NCBI GenBank assembly: GCA_043825875.1 | Contig: JBDRRF010000082.1 | Coordinates: 1 to 13,859, forward strand | DNA from: Pseudomonadota bacterium | Lineage (GTDB): Bacteria; Desulfobacterota; Desulfobacteria; Desulfobacterales; RPRI01 | DNA: 13,859 nt | Direction of reading: 5' to 3' | Shown here: in pieces, positions 1 through 13,859 of the stretch | How positions within the stretch are numbered: the first letter of the stretch is position 1 | How the letters are laid out: each line of letters begins with the position of its first letter | Position numbers: made by a program

Positions 1-3000
1 ATTCAAGATCACTGTAGGAAATTGGTATGAAGCGCTGGGCTGGAACAGAGAAACCGGCTATCCTACCTTGGAACATCTGAAAGATATGGGAATTGAAGAT
101 CTGGCGCCTGAACTGGAAAAGATAGGCAAGTTAGGCTAAAAACAAGGGCAGTATTCAAGAGGCCAAGGGTTCAATTTAAATATTACTTACATTTAAATTG
201 AACCTTCAAAATAGAAAGGAGTTAAAAATGAGTGCAATGCGAGTCAAAGAACATCATCCACGCTCTTTTAATCTCCAGGCTTCCGCATATACGTAACGTG
301 GTTTCCCGAAAAAAATTATTTTCATTAATGTGCATAAGCATTTCATGTGTTTATTTGATAAAGCATATCTTATTTCACACTTTGCTGCATTAAGTGCGAA
401 TAGAAACATATAAAAGTGTTGTATACCATATTTATGACTGATGTAGTTGTTTAAACAATTGTATTTACAAATAATAATATTTTGGCATGGTTTAAGCTTA
501 ACATATTAGATAAAATGATGAACGAGAACATGTTAAATTAGATAGTACTTTGGCGCAATCGGTATATAAATCTGAAAAACGCTATACAAGGAGACAAAAT
601 TAAGATGAAACAATCAAGAAATTATCGCATTTTAGGATTGTTACTGGGCTTATCTTTTCTGTTTTTTTGTAGCGGAATCTTGCAGGCTGAAGAAATAGCT
701 GATTACGGGAACATATTTCCAATGCAAGTGGATCAATTAGCGTCCGATTCCATAATGATTTATCAGATTGTCTGGATGTCTGCAATACTAGCGGGCATAA
801 TCGCTTATGGAGTATATAGAACCATACGCCATAAAGACCCGATACTACTCTTTACGATGGGTTCCGGGATTATAGCTTTTTTTAATGAGGGAAACCTTGA
901 AGTGCTTGTTCATGTCACAATGCCGGTTAACTCTATAATGCCTGTATACCAGGCCTATGGAATAATCATGCCCTTTTGGATGCTCATTGGTTATACCGCT
1001 GTATTTCCGCTCTTGTCTTATATTGCCTACAGTTATTTAAAAAAGGGATTGGAAACCAAAGGCTTTATCATTTTATGGGTTTTGTTTTGCCTATTTGACT
1101 TTGTAGCCGAAGTCCCAGGTGTCGCCATGGGGGCGTATGTATACCAGCCGCCACAAATGCTGACATTTCTGGGTTTTCCGATATATAATATGTGGATAAA
1201 CGGAACTTCATGGCTTCTGGGTGGTGTTCTGATGTACTTTTTTGTACCGATTCTGACGGGCTGGAAACGACCTCTCATTTCACTTTTACCGTTCTTTGCG
1301 TTTGCCACAGGATGGGGTATAATAGATGTCCCGATCGTAATCGCACTGAATTTTGCCGGAATGCCCGCCTGGGGCAAGTGGGTGCTGTGGTTTGTTTCGC
1401 TAGGACTTAGCATCCTCATTGTAGTCACTCTGAATAGCATGGTCACGACAACTTCCAAGACAAGATGGAGATTGCCATGGGCTACATTGGATGCGGAGAT
1501 AGCAGCAGAGGCATCGGTGACTGCACCCGTCTTAGTCCGTTGAGTCTTATGTTACAATTTAAATATTATGAAACGATTTAACCATTTATGCATAGAAAGG
1601 AGTAAAAAATGAATGTAATGCGAGTCAAAGAACATCATCCATTGTATGGTGAATTGGCGATGATTGTTGGTTCCAAATTTACAACAGACAGCGACTTTGC
1701 TTTGTGGGCATATTCCCGCGACTCAAGTCCTGTTCCGGGAAAGGTTCCGGGGATAATCGTAAGGCCCGGCAGCACCGAGGAAGTATCGGAGATCATCAAA
1801 CTTGCAAATCTGACTCATACCCCGGTAATCCCACGTGGTGGGGGCGCTTCTATTTTTGGTTTTCCGGCAGGTATTCCCGGAAGAAGTATAGTAATGGATA
1901 CTACACGGCTGGACAAATTAATTGAGATCAATGAAGAAAACATGACGGTAACTGCTGAGGCAGGCATCGGTGTTTGCGAGCTGGGAACCAAGCTGACCGA
2001 AAAGGGATATTATGCAAATCTTGTCTGGGCGCCCTATTATGCGGATACGCTCGGTGGCCTGATTGGCGGCGTTATGGGTGGAGGATGGTCGACGCGAACG
2101 CAAGTAGTGGGACCCAATGCGAATCATATACTGGGCATGAAAGTAGTTACGCCCACCGGAGGCGTGATCCAAACCGGGGGAGGTCCGGGGACTAATGTGC
2201 ATCGTAAAACCACCTTCATGCGTGATGGGGGCGGACCCGATACAACCGGTTTATTCATCGGTGATGGAGGAACATTCGGCATTAAAACCGAAATAACGCT
2301 TTCAATTTACCCCCTCGAAACGGTTGCCAAACCAAGAGGCTTTCTCTTCAAGAGTTTTGATGACATCTGGAGCGCCATGTCCAGGTTGATGGCAATAGAG
2401 CCCTTTCCTTATACGAATCTTGTCGGACTTGCACCGAATGCCACGGCGCTGTTTATGAAAGATCCTTGTTGGGTATTATTATGCTATACCAGAGGATATG
2501 AGGAAGAGGAGGTAACAACCAAGATTAAGGTAGTAGATGAGGTTTGCTTGGCGGCAGGAGGTGAAATGGGTTCGGAAGCGATTCATATGCAGGCCAGTGC
2601 AGCCGGAACCGGAGAAATGTATCGTGAAATGGGCAAGCTTGCTTCGATAGGTATGTGGGTATTTCTTGAGACGCATGTTCCCAAAGAAGATCTTCCGAGA
2701 CTCTTTAACAAGTATGCTGAGCTGATTGATCAAAGATTCGAAGAAAAAGGCATAAAGGAATATGGCGGTGTCAGAATGGATGTTATGTTGCCTGTAGGGC
2801 ACGGCGAGTGCTATCTTTCGACAAATGTTTACTGGCAGGTTAATGTTCCGGAAGCAAGAAAGAAAGTTATGGAAATAGCTGACGAGTTCGTTAATGTCAC
2901 GATAAATGACGGGCTGTTTGCAACAACCGCCCAGCGTATACCCGCCGGAGTAACAGGCGCCAACTGGTCACCTTCTTATTATGAATTTATGCGCACCTTA

Positions 3001-12000: not shown

Positions 12001-13859
12001 GGATGCATTAAAGATGATAGCCGAATTTGAACCCCCGATTTTAGTCATCGTAGTATTAATGCCTTTAACCGGAACACCGATGCAAAATGTATTACCGCCT
12101 GATCCTTCTGAGGTGGCAAGGCTCATAGCTATGGCAAGAATACAGATGCCGGATACTCTTATCAGTTTGGGTTGTGCCCGCCCGCGAGGAAAGGTAAGCG
12201 AAGAATTGGAAGTACTGGCTATAGATTCAGGAGTAAACCGGGTCGCTATCTGGTCTGATGCAGCGATAAAAAGAGCAAAGGAATACGGCTTAGAGATCGG
12301 GTTTCATAAGACTTGTTGTAGTGTTACAGGAGGGGCTTGTGTCTGACTGTACTGGTTGTATGGATTGCGAAAAGGTATGCCCCCTCACTTCTTTCGGTTT
12401 TGGAATCGGCAATATAATCAGAAAGCATCTTGCCGGAAAAGAAGAAGATCTAATTGATACAAAAGAGATATGGCATTGCACTATGTGCTTTGCCTGCGAT
12501 GATGCCTGCCCCACAGACTTTAAGCCCAGAGAGCTTATGATTAGTCTTCGGAGAAGATCCGAAAATTACCCGAAAGCTTATAAAAGATTGGTAGCCGGGA
12601 TAAAAAATTCCGGTAATGCTTTTTCCATGAAAGAAAAAGAAAACAATGATTATTTGCAATTGTTCAAGATATGTCCGCCTGAATGAGAAGACTGTTACAA
12701 AGGTTTATAAATTAGGTTGCGTATTGTCATTTCGAACAAAGTGAGAAATCTTAATTGATATCGAAGCCGGTAAAAGATATCTCCCTTCGGTCGATATGAC
12801 ACCGGAATTATGAAATGGGGCACTATAGATAAATGAAATACGCTTTTTTTCGGGGTTGTATAATACCTTACAGGCTTTCATATTATGAAATTTCCGCCAG
12901 AAAAGTTTTGACAAAATTAGGGATTGAACTGGTTGATCTTGATTTTGGTTGCTGCGGTTCACAAATGCTTGAATCAAGAAACGAGGATTTATGGCTTGCG
13001 GTAGCTGCAAGAAACCTTGCGATAGCGGAAAGAGAAAATGTAGACATACTGACCCTGTGCGGAAGCTGTACCAATACTTTATCCAGAGCAAAGAATCTGA
13101 TGGAAAGTGATATGGACAAAGCTCAGCATGTGAAGCAGATCCTAAAAAAAATAGGGATTGAATTCAATAACAAGACAAGAGTCATACATATTTTAAAACT
13201 ACTGGCTGAAGAAATTGGAATTGGGAAAGTAAAAAAACATATTAAAAACAATCTGGATTTAAAGGTTGCCATGCAACACCCTTGTCAGATCTACCGGCCA
13301 GCTGAAATAATGAATTTTGGAAAAGATGCCGTTAACGATTTTGCCTCTTGCTTTATATCTGAAATCTTTGATGTGAATGCTTGCTGCGGGGAAACTTTGA
13401 TCGCTACAAACCAGGATGCATGCATTAATATCTTGAAACAAAATTTAGAAACCTGTTTTGCCAAAGATGTAAGTATGATTTTAACAGCCTGCGGAAATTG
13501 CCAGATGACCTATGATGTAAATCAGATGGGATTAAAAGTAAAAGATCAAATTAGCAGTACTCTGCCTTCATTGACCATAACTCAAGCGTTAGGGATGGCC
13601 ATGGGTTTTGGATATGATGAACTTGGGTTGAGGCAAAATATTATTAAGATATAAACTTCAATAAAAAGATTTCAGATTTATGGCGGGGTGTAAAACCCCG
13701 CCATACGCTAAATTATTAGAGCCAGTTTCAAAACGCCCCATTTTGGCCGATCTCTGCGTTGGGCTCAAATTTCAATCCTCGAAATACTCAATGTATTCCT
13801 GCGGTTGAAATTTTCTCCCGCCTTGAGCTTGACCAAACTGAAACGTTTTGAAAGTGGTA

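Follow-up and report, generated by a model that had tools for sequence, protein, structure and literature searches.

Organization of the cluster and its lipoate assembly genes

The window, the whole 13,859-nt stretch of DNA analysed here, comes from a sulfate-reducing groundwater bacterium (genome completeness 99.81%; dsrA found at 619 bits) and carries a cluster of open reading frames that all run in the same direction on the + strand (Table 1). All eleven genes that a preliminary description had placed in the cluster were found where it had located them. The start and stop codons of GlcD2/HdrD2 and of unk267/Lpl overlap by 4 nt each, and HdrD2 and unk267 are 3 nt apart, which argues for co-expression.

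Table 1. Genes and repeat features of the window
Feature	Position	Strand	Basis or remark
Membrane protein, 312 aa, distantly AveC-like/Caroten_synth-like	605..1543	+	flanks cluster
GlcD1, VAO/PCMH-fold flavoprotein	1609..3054	+	FAD_binding_4 + FAD-oxidase_C
HdrD1, 2x[4Fe-4S] ferredoxin domain and two CCG	3070..4248	+	Fer4_8 + 2 CCG
Diverged copy of ~140-nt intergenic repeat	4261..4368	.	BLAST
KW-type GcvH, lipoyl carrier protein	4460..4900	+	GCV_H
GlcD2, FAD flavoprotein of triad	4911..6380	+	FAD_binding_4
HdrD2, 2x[4Fe-4S] and two CCG	6377..7489	+	Fer4 + 2 CCG
Third triad subunit (unk267), predicted truncated VAO fold	7493..8296	+	predicted structure
sLpl(AB)-type lipoate:protein ligase–DUF116 fusion (Lpl)	8293..9858	+	LplA-B_cat + Lip_prot_lig_C + DUF116
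459-nt spacer of REP-like palindromes	9859..10317	.	sequence reading
LipT-position flavoprotein, geranylgeranyl-reductase (GGR) family	10318..11409	+	TIGR02032, PF22578
LipS1 radical-SAM lipoyl synthase subunit	11387..12346	+	NF053742
HdrC-like 2x[4Fe-4S] ferredoxin	12321..12686	+	TIGR03290; cysteine motifs
HdrB-like protein, two complete CCG motifs	12833..13654	+	CCG; TIGR03288
~140-nt dispersed repeat at contig end	13719..13859	.	identical to start of C4

The contig ends 205 nt past the HdrB-like gene, within a repeat that is identical to the first 141 nt of contig C4 (exact 141-nt overlap). LipS2, recorded as not seen in the preliminary description, lies behind this shared repeat (C4:248-1282; NF053743, 239 bits, cut-off 270), and LipS2 directly follows HdrB in each of the four relatives with a locus long enough to show it (L015, L016, L025, L026). 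Read from this gene order, the sLpl(AB)-LipT-LipS1-LipS2 set is therefore complete, with LipS2 on the adjoining contig. Copies of the repeat at least 120 nt long number 257, spread over 79 contigs, and the repeat occupies 60 of the 236 contig ends; the copy between HdrD1 and GcvH is 88.9% identical to the contig-end copy over 108 nt. The spacer between ligase and LipT consists of palindromes of the GGCGGGGT.TAAAACCCCGCC type, matches no Rfam family and is missing in relatives, the LipT match starting 18-41 nt past the ligase match in L015 and L016. The flanking membrane protein has no Pfam or NCBIfam match; by structure, the ESM Atlas places it near membrane proteins of the AveC-like and carotenoid-biosynthesis types (TM 0.55-0.78). 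Paralogues lie at both cluster ends in L016 and L026, and another, in L025, matches PF17198 at 56.6 bits.

Family scores support the earlier proposal of a second, LipS1/LipS2-type lipoate set beside a GcvH-family protein and Hdr-like genes. The ligase combines LplA-B_cat (157.1 bits), Lip_prot_lig_C (28.8 bits) and DUF116 (34.7 bits); the eight cysteines of the last domain are invariant across 27 sequences, and its AF2 model (pLDDT 88.5) shows an alpha/beta fold of a generic kind, for which the PDB gives no specific match. LipS1 exceeds its cut-off (NF053742, 244.5 bits against 230) and contains Radical_SAM and BATS domains with a CELNCGHC motif. The GGR-like flavoprotein was correctly assigned to its family (TIGR02032, 211.8 bits, cut-off 158.8; PF22578, 35.2 bits) and occupies the known position of LipT, the FAD oxidoreductase of published lipS1-slpl(AB)-lipT-lipS2 clusters (PMC10332631). 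The assembly pathway itself is likewise already known; as had been suspected, the supplements of the 2023 survey name Desulfobacterota, with species rows in S2 Table and the sLpl(AB)-LipS1/LipS2 pathway tabulated for 7.6% of genomes in S4 Table (Tanabe 2023, PMC10332631). Common to that pathway (Cao 2018, PMC6067878; Tanabe 2023, PMC10332631) and this locus are the fused LplA+LplB ligase and, in one cluster, the radical-SAM pair LipS1/LipS2 and a GGR-family flavoprotein at the LipT position; LipA coexists here, as in most LipS1/S2 bacteria. The locus differs in the C-terminal Cys-rich DUF116 domain of the ligase, the hdrC/hdrB-like genes between lipS1 and lipS2, a LipS2 under its NCBIfam cut-off, and a presumed acceptor that is no LbpA but belongs to an acidic, Cys-free GcvH subfamily.

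Elsewhere in the genome, the conventional pair reported earlier is present on contig C81, where LipA (TIGR00510, 370.6 bits) adjoins a 280-aa LipM-like protein with LplA-B_cat as its sole domain. Lpd-like genes occur on C22 (371 bits, cut-off 408.8) and on the last part of C81, there as an N-terminal fragment of 43 residues at the contig end, so the claim that every classical lipoate enzyme is missing was overstated. The reported absence of GcvT, GcvP and E2 was borne out: a family search of the genome found no 2-oxoacid_dh E2, GCV_T or GDC-P. The other clear GCV_H-domain proteins are two paralogues of 149 aa and two fusions that lack the lysine; weak matches lie on C76 (23.4 bits) and C48 (21.8 bits).

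The KW-type GcvH subfamily

The cluster GcvH scores above both NCBIfam cut-offs (NF002270, 141.9 bits against 117; TIGR00527, 135.4 against 115.85; GCV_H, 132.4 bits), has a C-terminal extension and carries lipoyl-Lys69 in the motif QSAKW (MQSAKW). The K-W pair at the lipoyl-lysine recurs in all 120 best homologues, whereas solved and GcvT-adjacent GcvHs read ES[VT]K[ATS] there; by context, [QE][ST]xKW occurs in 37 of 37 context-linked GcvHs and VESVK[ATS] in 7 of 7 GcvT-adjacent ones. The tree places the protein with all triad-linked GcvHs inside a QSxKW clade (support 90/90), separate from the canonical clade (96/85), with monophyly of the whole KW group weakly supported (63/64). By motif and tree position, the cluster GcvH is thus a member of a distinct KW subfamily. 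It had been described as an ordinary GcvH rather than an LbpA: the first half of that statement fails, and the second stands, since a protein with no cysteine and a pI of 4.68 is not an LbpA. The sLpl(AB) ligases studied so far favour basic LbpAs over acidic GcvHs, according to the available part of a preprint (10.64898/2026.10.01.755906); the acidity of KW-GcvH, unlike the favoured LbpAs, is a counterpoint to a role as acceptor.

Among 29 KW-GcvH loci from other genomes, HdrD/HdrB/HdrC/GlcD-like genes lie within 1.5 kb in 18, only Lpl/LipS2 in four, and neither Hdr-like nor Lpl neighbours in seven. A LipS1 match (E<=1e-40) was found in 25 of the 29 genomes with a top-scoring KW-GcvH and in 70 of the 400 genomes of the sample, the 29 being kin from about seven families rather than independent cases (10 of the 25 LipS1-positive genomes belong to family f21). 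In several families, and with differing gene orders, KW-GcvH lies next to CCG or GlcD-like genes, and the association of GcvH with CCG, GlcD-like and Lpl/LipS genes, proposed earlier, holds for the KW subfamily across several families of the phylum. Most KW-GcvH genomes also encode a GCV_T-domain protein, so KW-GcvH may serve glycine cleavage there; neither GcvT nor E2 was found in G000, G033 and G072.

A triad of GlcD-like, HdrD-like and truncated VAO-fold proteins

Both GlcD-like proteins lack, by alignment, the His/His/Glu-His active-site motifs of 2-hydroxyacid dehydrogenases, and the earlier term "2-hydroxyacid-type dehydrogenase" can be kept only as a label for the fold. GlcD1 (FAD_binding_4, 94.1 bits; FAD-oxidase_C, 40.1 bits; TIGR00387, 100.4 bits against a cut-off of 567.9), found in close relatives only, is missing the GH..GDGN.H and GEHGIG motifs. 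GlcD2 (FAD_binding_4, 129.3 bits) retains the PRGGGS loop, has V and S where mouse LDHD shows His398 and His405 in the alignment, reads SVYGIG in place of GEHGIG, and ends in a conserved hydrophobic tail of about 45 aa.

Both C..CCG..CxxC motifs are kept in all three CCG proteins. In HdrD1 (CCG, 116.6 bits in two stretches, plus Fer4_8) they can be read directly in the translation. TfrB is the best NCBIfam match of HdrD1 (169.4 bits) and also matches HdrD2 (207 bits; CCG, 123.1 bits), under the cut-off in both cases. All cluster cysteines of HdrD2 are invariant in 14 orthologues; its closest solved chain is 9ojn_A, an "iron-sulfur-binding reductase" (E 7e-42), followed by methanogen HdrB/HdrC at E 1e-8 or weaker. 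The HdrC-like ferredoxin (TIGR03290, 56.8 bits, below cut-off) has two CxxCxxCxxxCP motifs, and the HdrB-like protein reaches 66.6 bits for CCG and 165.4 for TIGR03288 (cut-off 345.15). No HdrA-like gene was found in the cluster or in that of relatives with a complete locus, in agreement with the first description.

The protein of 7493..8296 had been called unknown; it indeed belongs to no Pfam or NCBIfam family, but its structure can be predicted. The AF2 model (pLDDT 90.8) matches D-lactate dehydrogenase in Foldseek (probability 1.0, TMq 0.70-0.73), and VIA aligned 256 residues to mLDHD residues 118-445 (Z 19.5, rmsd 3.3). The model indicates a truncated VAO-fold protein without the N-terminal FAD-binding subdomain, GlcE-like by position, which probably carries no flavin. 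Among 1.84 billion proteins its family accounts for no more than 38 representative clusters, and it is restricted to the triad context. Conserved gene order marks GlcD2, HdrD2 and this third subunit as a triad: all 18 metagenome loci with sufficient upstream DNA have GlcD2 ahead of HdrD2, and of the 10 divergent triad loci with sufficient DNA, 7 have GcvH immediately upstream of GlcD2, the exceptions being L048 and the near-identical L043 and L044. Lpl comes after the triad in L023, L029, L030, L034, L037, L039 and L040, with LipS2/LipS1 following in L023, L030, L039 and L040.

Proposed function and comparison with known systems

We give about an even chance to the reading that the cluster encodes a lipoyl-protein-dependent Hdr-like redox module. 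Such a module would be self-contained, with layers for cofactor assembly, a dedicated acceptor and a redox partner. Judged by family assignments, sLpl(AB)-LipT-LipS1-LipS2 would attach octanoate or lipoate and insert two sulfurs, in parallel to the LipM-like/LipA pair. From co-location and co-occurrence, we infer that the acceptor is the cluster's own KW-GcvH, neither a glycine-cleavage H-protein nor an LbpA but dedicated to this role. The Hdr-like Fe-S flavoenzymes probably use it as redox partner: its dithiolane, as dithiol or disulfide, could be what the CCG (noncubane Fe-S) sites in HdrD2, HdrD1 and the HdrB/HdrC-like proteins act on, by analogy with HdrB acting on CoM-S-S-CoB or TfrB on thiols. 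The electron route of the triad would link the lipoyl group at HdrD2, by way of the two [4Fe-4S] clusters of HdrD2, to the FAD of GlcD2, which would be partnered by the truncated subunit. Since GlcD2 has lost the hydroxyacid catalytic residues, its co-substrate may be a quinone or another non-hydroxyacid compound; a connection to NAD(H) could run via the Lpd-like enzymes encoded elsewhere. Some CCG-domain enzymes, such as SdhE and GlpC, work with quinones instead of disulfides, which speaks against the module. The low potential of lipoate (-325 mV as quoted in PMC8760232) would make its reduction by most organic donors uphill, which also counts against the module.

A purely biosynthetic role of GcvH is unlikely; here it would be no more than an obligatory first acceptor or relay for LipS1/S2, comparable to the GcvH of Bacillus, and would pass the lipoyl group on to other proteins, with the Hdr-like and GlcD-like genes as unrelated neighbours. 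Relays of this kind are known (available parts of bioRxiv 10.1101/419234 and PMC10332631), and the four loci with only Lpl/LipS2 alongside would fit one, but the genome has no E2 catalytic domain and, as further GCV_H proteins, only the paralogues, lysine-less fusions and weak matches listed above; the recurrent CCG or GlcD-like adjacency and the tight gene packing also argue against it.

Similarly unlikely is a membrane-associated triad that works in isoprenoid-quinone metabolism or quinone-linked respiration with GcvH as reductant, for example a dihydrolipoyl-GcvH:menaquinone oxidoreductase or a prenyl/quinone-modifying enzyme. The hydrophobic tail and lost hydroxyacid site of GlcD2 suit this role, as do the genes that follow the triad: a UbiA prenyltransferase, a NapC/NirT-like multihaem cytochrome and a polyprenyl synthetase in L028 and L032, the latter two only in L023, L039, L043 and L044. 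These genes may, however, reflect synteny inherited within one clade. The GGR-family and AveC/Caroten_synth-like proteins of the cluster point the same way, but the former sits where LipT normally does; the triad has no conserved transmembrane subunit, and quinone binding is purely putative.

We consider it improbable that the carrier holds sulfane sulfur to be oxidised or reduced by the Hdr-like modules, as in sHdr-LbpA, for instance in sulfur disproportionation or thiosulfate metabolism. Similar parts (lipoyl carrier, dedicated sLpl/LipS1/LipS2/LipT, HdrB/HdrC-type proteins) do serve sHdr in sulfur oxidisers; here, though, HdrA is missing from the cluster, TusA, DsrE and rhodanese genes are absent from the window and the examined flanks of relatives, the acidic carrier lacks the two conserved LbpA cysteines, VAO-type flavoproteins are not among sHdr components, and sHdr is listed for only 0.075% of Desulfobacterota (S4 Table, PMC10332631). 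Chance neighbourhood of an ordinary glycine-cleavage H-protein and ordinary D-lactate/glycolate dehydrogenases, suggested by the GcvH model scores and the GlcD/GlcF-type domain architecture, is largely refuted and very improbable given the absence of GcvT and GcvP, the KW motif and separate clade, the far sub-threshold GlcD scores with lost catalytic motifs, and a gene context kept across distant loci.

Returning to the lipoyl-dependent redox module, its central idea is already voiced for Culexarchaeia, in which the authors speculate that the GcvH lipoyl disulfide is the disulfide of HdrB in organisms without CoM/CoB; that GcvH lies in an archaeal, hydrogenase-linked Ehe HdrBC cluster, for which the available part of the paper describes no dedicated lipoate assembly genes or VAO-type triad (PMC9723716). 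The present analysis adds to the first reading a distinct GcvH subfamily, its consistent neighbours and the third protein as a probable truncated VAO-fold triad subunit. The preliminary description had proposed a counterpart of sHdr-LbpA, and the linkage of KW-GcvH to CCG, GlcD-like and Lpl/LipS genes makes this a reasonable working analogy. Both systems have a GcvH-homologous lipoyl carrier, their own LipS1/S2 genes and adjoining HdrB/HdrC-type CCG proteins; the counterpart does not extend to HdrA, sulfur-transferase genes or a carrier with the two LbpA cysteines. The place of sHdrA is taken by VAO-fold flavoproteins and HdrD-type fusions, and the anaerobic host carries dsrA.

GlcDEF glycolate oxidase and the HdrD-linked D-lactate dehydrogenases (Dld-II/LdhAB) of sulfate reducers offer three-part comparisons: two subunits of VAO fold, the first of them the FAD subunit, are joined by an Fe-S subunit with two CCG. 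The triad departs from them in its missing catalytic motifs, in a second subunit shortened to the equivalent of LDHD residues 118-445, in scores far below the GlcD, GlcE and GlcF cut-offs, and in the attached lipoyl carrier gene. With thiol:fumarate reductase TfrAB, whose TfrB scores best among NCBIfam models for each of the two HdrD-like proteins, and with HdrB/HdrD, the triad would share the principle of two [4Fe-4S] clusters and two CCG between a thiol/disulfide site and a flavoprotein. Every score lies below cut-off, the flavoprotein is VAO-type where TfrAB has an FrdA-type one, and the proposed thiol would be a protein-bound lipoyl group in place of CoM/CoB.

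Gene content and lipoate assembly

The window constitutes the whole of contig C82 in a 4.77-Mb assembly of 118 contigs (99.81% complete), and dsrA is present in the same genome (G000). Twelve co-directional ORFs occupy the contig, and Pfam and NCBIfam searches of the window matched the gene assignments of the preliminary description. GlcD2 and HdrD2 overlap by 4 nt, as do subunit 3 and the ligase, and a gap of 3 nt separates HdrD2 from subunit 3; GlcD2, HdrD2 and subunit 3 are referred to below as the triad. The contig opens with the 3' end of a further gene (window 2-139, 45 aa, open at its 5' end). 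No Rfam family reached its gathering score in the window. The sigma-54 promoter consensus gave 8 matches with at most 2 mismatches against 6.2 expected, with none in intergenic start regions. A sigma-54 activator flanks the cluster in the related loci L016 and L025, and none was seen in the window. DNA of the cluster occurs in groundwater metagenomes and, in small shares, in marine ones; no RNA data set containing it was found.

Open reading frames of contig C82 in order along the forward strand
Product	Coordinates	Strand	Basis or remark
312-aa membrane protein, no family	605-1543	+	precedes the other eleven ORFs
GlcD-like flavoprotein (GlcD1)	1609-3054	+	Pfam/NCBIfam
HdrD-like protein (HdrD1)	3070-4248	+	Pfam/NCBIfam
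GcvH	4460-4900	+	Pfam/NCBIfam
Second GlcD-like protein (GlcD2)	4911-6380	+	Pfam/NCBIfam
Second HdrD-like protein (HdrD2)	6377-7489	+	Pfam/NCBIfam
Protein without family (subunit 3, 267 aa)	7493-8296	+	Pfam/NCBIfam without match
LplA+LplB+DUF116 fusion ligase	8293-9858	+	Pfam/NCBIfam
GGR-family flavoprotein (LipT position)	10318-11409	+	TIGR02032, 211.8 bits
LipS1	11387-12346	+	NF053742, 244.5 bits (cut-off 230)
HdrC-like ferredoxin	12321-12686	+	Pfam/NCBIfam
HdrB-like protein	12833-13654	+	Pfam/NCBIfam

The LipS1 protein scores above the cut-off of its model and carries the CxxxCxxC motif. In the ligase, the LplA and LplB domains stand in A-B order (LplA-B_cat at residues 16-218, Lip_prot_lig_C at 268-349), and the protein falls below the cut-off of every NCBIfam ligase model. 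The flavoprotein encoded by the next gene 3' of the ligase, which is the LipT position, was called by family and place. Clusters of the form lipS1-slpl(AB)-lipT-lipS2, with LipT as an FAD oxidoreductase and possible electron supplier, were described by Tanabe 2023 (PMC10332631), whose supplements, as the preliminary description had cautioned, do list Desulfobacterota. The S4 Table gives LipS1 plus LipS2 in 7.6% of genomes of that phylum, with Lpl in 7.5% and with LipT in 5.6%, and places sHdr at 0.075% and LbpA at 0.8%; the S2 Table records, among others, Desulfobacterium_A vacuolatum, with LipS1, LipS2, LipT, LplA and GcvH and with neither LbpA nor sHdr. The main text of that paper mentions neither names beginning with Desulfobacter nor DUF116 nor sulfate reducers. 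Since these tables already cover the phylum, the assembly pathway is not new here: a lipoate assembly set in a sulfate reducer represents a known pathway and is no discovery by itself.

LipS2, previously reported as unseen, is indeed absent from the window; a LipS2-like radical-SAM protein with a CxxxCxxC motif is encoded at C4:248-1282 of the same genome (best match NF053743 at 239.2 bits, which misses the cut-off of 270). C82 ends in the very 141 nt with which C4 begins. A C82-C4 join from this sequence alone was rejected as proof, because the overlap is a dispersed intergenic repeat of about 140 nt, of which BLAST found 257 copies 120 nt or more in length, spread over 79 contigs. We instead place the join by synteny: LipS2 lies directly 3' of HdrB in each of the four related loci that extend far enough, namely L015 from an uncultured Desulfobacterium sp., L016 from a MAG, and the metagenome contigs L025 and L026. 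Judged by sequence, the lipoate assembly line appears complete, with octanoyl/lipoyl transfer and sulfur insertion as its predicted activities.

The repeat is a main cause of assembly breaks, given that 60 of 236 contig ends fall inside a copy; within the window it occupies 13719-13859 and 4261-4368. Paralogues of the 312-aa membrane protein bound the cluster on both sides in L016 and L026. The ligase and LipT-position genes are separated by a spacer of 459 nt (9859-10317), which is made up of REP-like palindromes of the GGCGGGGT.TAAAACCCCGCC type and is absent from relatives; the first 9 or so codons of the LipT-position ORF fall within such a palindrome.

A search with the ligase in the genome contigs retrieved only 2 related loci. 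Its DUF116 domain has 8 Cys that are invariant in 27 sequences, and the structure model predicts an alpha/beta fold with no specific solved match: Foldseek returned nothing from the PDB at E<=0.001, and a wide VIA search gave a best Z of 7.1 to de novo designed P-loop-NTPase/Rossmann-type folds, the rest being generic Rossmann/flavodoxin-like, so that these matches point to no function. HdrB was absent from the matches to this model, and kinship is possible all the same. Short database matches to DUF116 are mostly fragments of LplA-DUF116 fusions, from sources named as Caldiserica, Desulfovibrio and Desulfosarcinaceae. Our guess is that DUF116 might bind a metal or an Fe-S cluster and so take part in inserting sulfur or repairing clusters.

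The KW-type GcvH and its genomic context

The lipoyl carrier encoded in the window had been described as looking like an ordinary GcvH, a view that its sequence contradicts. In alignment, its K69 takes the place of the lipoyl-lysine in solved GcvHs, within QSAKW rather than the E-S-[VT]-K-[ATS] of the solved proteins from four organisms. Lysine-tryptophan at this position recurs in all 120 best homologues in a collection of 5.8 billion proteins, as [QE][ST]xKW[IV]. KW was likewise found in 37 of 37 GcvHs from triad, Hdr-like or Lpl contexts, against VESVK[ATS] in 7 of 7 GcvT-adjacent ones (eight regions were taken, of which L087 yielded no ORF by extraction). In a GcvH tree of 50 rows, from which L079 was left out as its extracted ORF is not a GcvH, the canonical proteins form one clade (support 96/85), separate from a QSxKW clade of 17 rows (90/90) that holds the window protein and every triad-linked GcvH. 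All KW proteins as one group amount to a single change on the tree, with weak support (63/64). KW proteins are also extended by some 20 residues at the C-terminus and are acidic (median pI 4.55); the window protein has a pI of 4.68, 0 Cys, and 26 Asp+Glu against 14 Lys+Arg.

As reported earlier, the genome lacks GcvT, GcvP and E2, with 0 matches to PF01571, PF02347 and the E2 catalytic domain in the 99.81% complete assembly. The further claim that every classical lipoate enzyme is absent was too strong, because Lpd-like genes exist: one on C22 (371 bits, just under the cut-off) and one of which C81 holds an N-terminal fragment where the contig ends. LipA on C81 adjoins a protein with an LplA-family catalytic domain alone. 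Among 401 genomes, GCV_T occurs in 184, including most of those with KW-type GcvH, and is absent from G000 and the sampled genomes G033, G072 and G338; E2 is also absent from G033 and G072. The window protein passes the curated GcvH models (TIGR00527, 135.4 bits, cut-off 115.85; NF002270, 141.9 bits, cut-off 117), and for this reason it is named "glycine cleavage system protein H" where no glycine cleavage system exists. This constitutes an annotation trap, in which KW-type proteins are misnamed even in genomes without that system.

The context of the KW-type GcvH was assessed in the 29 best loci from other genomes, in a 400-genome sample of the phylum. HdrD-, HdrB-, HdrC- or GlcD-like genes lie within 1.5 kb in 18 of the 29 and Lpl/LipS2 alone in 4, and none of these was detected at that distance in 7. 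A LipS1 match at E<=1e-40 was present in 25 of the 29 genomes compared with 70 of 400 in the whole sample, a comparison that is no statistical test because the 29 are interrelated and represent about 7 families. The order to which the window belongs is represented in the sample by 13 genomes, of which none has the subunit-3 family and none a LipS1 match, and the closest relatives of the cluster belong to another family (f78) and to MAGs; this distribution hints at lateral acquisition of the cluster.

Other GcvH-like proteins are encoded elsewhere in the genome. Two near-identical 149-aa paralogues with a VETSKAV motif (C31:210-659 and C28:280-729, minus strand) each neighbour a corrinoid-binding-like protein, as judged from translation, and on C31 an MtaA/URO-D-like protein, judged by eye, comes next. 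On C81, a weak URO-D-family match (25.4 bits) and then the start of the Lpd-like gene come after the LipM-like/LipA pair. These C31, C28 and C81 genes may represent a second lipoyl-carrier system tied to methyltransferases. Two proteins of about 310-330 aa (C8:14534-15469 and 15735-16724, minus strand) combine a Cys-rich N-terminal half with a GcvH-like C-terminal domain that has no lipoyl-lysine motif, and a MetF-like gene lies nearby (by translation); they may be the NCBIfam "GcvH-related protein" of Desulfovibrio type.

The triad and the CCG proteins

A collection of 1.84 billion proteins yielded only 38 representative relatives of subunit 3. Its AlphaFold model (pLDDT 90.8) matches D-lactate dehydrogenase and other VAO-fold enzymes, with a Foldseek probability of 1.0 and TMq of 0.70-0.73. 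VIA aligned 256 residues with mouse LDHD (Z 19.5, rmsd 3.3). As this match covers only LDHD 118-445, subunit 3 lacks the N-terminal FAD-binding subdomain.

Gene order around subunit 3 is conserved. HdrD2 lies 5' of it in 25 of 29 metagenome loci, the remaining 4 having <240 nt upstream, and GlcD2 lies 5' of HdrD2 in all 18 loci with enough DNA. Of 10 divergent loci, 7 have GcvH immediately 5' of GlcD2; those that do not are the near-identical pair L043 and L044, and L048. Behind the triad lies Lpl in L029, L030, L034, L037, L039, L040 and in L023, a locus from a complete genome, and LipS2/LipS1 come next in L030, L039, L040 and L023. The DUF116 fusion, LipT, HdrC/B, GlcD1/HdrD1 and the membrane protein accompany it in close relatives only. 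In L015 (5737-8114), GlcD2 is matched over residues 1-244 only and, ahead of HdrD2, the opposite strand carries an ORF of 757 aa without a Pfam family, so that a triad gene appears interrupted there; the GlcD1 match in this locus covers residues 338-481 only (36% identity).

Both GlcD-like proteins have the FAD_binding_4 plus FAD-oxidase_C architecture. The preliminary description had grouped them with 2-hydroxyacid-type dehydrogenases, and their sequences speak against this assignment on two counts. In the alignment, the metal-binding and catalytic residues, namely the histidines of GH.GDGN.H and the Glu-His of the GEHG.G motif, are missing from GlcD2, its six orthologues and GlcD1, while the control, the canonical fused GlcD-HdrD at L044:2148-4751, and mouse LDHD have the motifs. 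Scores against TIGR00387 (GlcD) are 202.8 bits for GlcD2 and 100.4 for GlcD1, far below the cut-off of 567.9.

HdrD1, HdrD2 and the HdrB-like protein each contain two complete C..CCG..CxxC motifs, which are ligands of two noncubane clusters; in HdrD2 both motifs are invariant across 14 orthologues. The best curated match of these CCG proteins is TfrB of thiol:fumarate reductase, and all methanogen Hdr models remain below cut-off for them. Complex prediction for HdrD2 (14-row alignment) with GcvH (22 rows) gave a score of 0.11, with the mark at 0.32, which speaks neither for nor against an interaction.

A live alternative is that the triad is tied to a quinone or isoprenoid. It draws on the UbiA, NapC/NirT-like multihaem cytochrome and polyprenyl synthetase genes that follow the triad in other lineages, on a hydrophobic tail conserved in GlcD2, and on the similarity of the flanking membrane protein to AveC/carotenoid-type proteins. 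UbiA prenyltransferase follows the triad in L028 and L032, and the NapC/NirT-like cytochrome c and polyprenyl synthetase in L028, L032, L023, L039, L043 and L044; in L023 the triad-downstream set is placed between LipS2 and LipS1.

A lipoyl carrier for Hdr-like enzymes: proposal and comparison with known systems

The lipoyl-carrier reading builds on what the sequences show: the assembly line, a carrier set apart from other GcvHs, CCG and [4Fe-4S] motifs with their ligands intact, a GlcD2 predicted to bind FAD, and a subunit 3 without the N-terminal FAD-binding subdomain. At the CCG sites, the carrier's lipoyl disulfide would bind and undergo reduction, or its dithiol would be oxidised; electrons would travel between these sites and the FAD of GlcD2, in one direction or the other, by way of the ferredoxin domain, and Lpd-like enzymes could provide a link between the carrier and NAD(H). 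As judged by comparative genomics, the window GcvH is a putative lipoyl carrier of a third kind, associated with Hdr-like enzymes and with a new triad of VAO-type and HdrD-like subunits. Our joint reading goes further and is put forward tentatively, as something we consider rather short of probable: the KW-type GcvH would be a widespread and hitherto unrecognised third class of lipoyl carrier beside GcvH proper and LbpA, made by LipS1/LipS2; its disulfide would be the physiological heterodisulfide of many orphan HdrB/HdrC/HdrD-like enzymes in anaerobic bacteria; and the triad would be a new lipoyl-protein-dependent flavo-iron-sulfur oxidoreductase. If true, the KW-type GcvH as LipS1/LipS2 product would explain the 58% of LipS1/LipS2-containing bacteria without sHdr.

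Two open questions are touched by this proposal: the thiol/disulfide substrate of HdrD/HdrB-like CCG proteins in sulfate reducers and other non-methanogenic anaerobes, and the target of LipS1/LipS2 lipoylation in bacteria without sHdr. A dedicated lipoyl carrier could answer both, and both are directly testable because the carrier is a small, expressible protein substrate.

Related ideas exist. Kohtz 2022 (PMC9723716) speculated that the unknown disulfide of HdrB sits on a GcvH that Culexarchaeia encode in a cluster with HdrBC and a hydrogenase, and in Oeppinger 2021 (PMC8760232), GcvH as an electron carrier of MetVF is weighed and dismissed by the authors. Our search of the open-access literature and bioRxiv found no description of the KW subfamily, the triad, or their LipS1/LipS2 link in Desulfobacterota.

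HdrB operates by a mechanism at two noncubane clusters. The proposed substrate of the window's CCG proteins would be the lipoyl disulfide, in place of CoM-S-S-CoB.

The cluster had also been read as a counterpart of the sHdr-LbpA system. LbpA has two strictly conserved Cys near its N- and C-termini, according to Cao 2018 (PMC6067878), and predominantly basic interaction surfaces, according to the Kuempel 2026 preprint (10.64898/2026.10.01.755906). In contrast, the window GcvH has neither Cys and is acidic, taking whole-protein pI as a proxy for surface, and for these reasons it is not an LbpA. LbpA is encoded in or beside an shdr cluster with sHdrA, whereas no HdrA-like gene occurs in the window, nor in those relatives whose locus is complete, so the HdrA-like partner noted earlier as unseen is missing there as well. 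What the window GcvH and LbpA have in common is a lipoyl-lysine in a GcvH fold, and the part of the comparison that stands is that of a proposed variant of the sHdr-LbpA principle in anaerobes.
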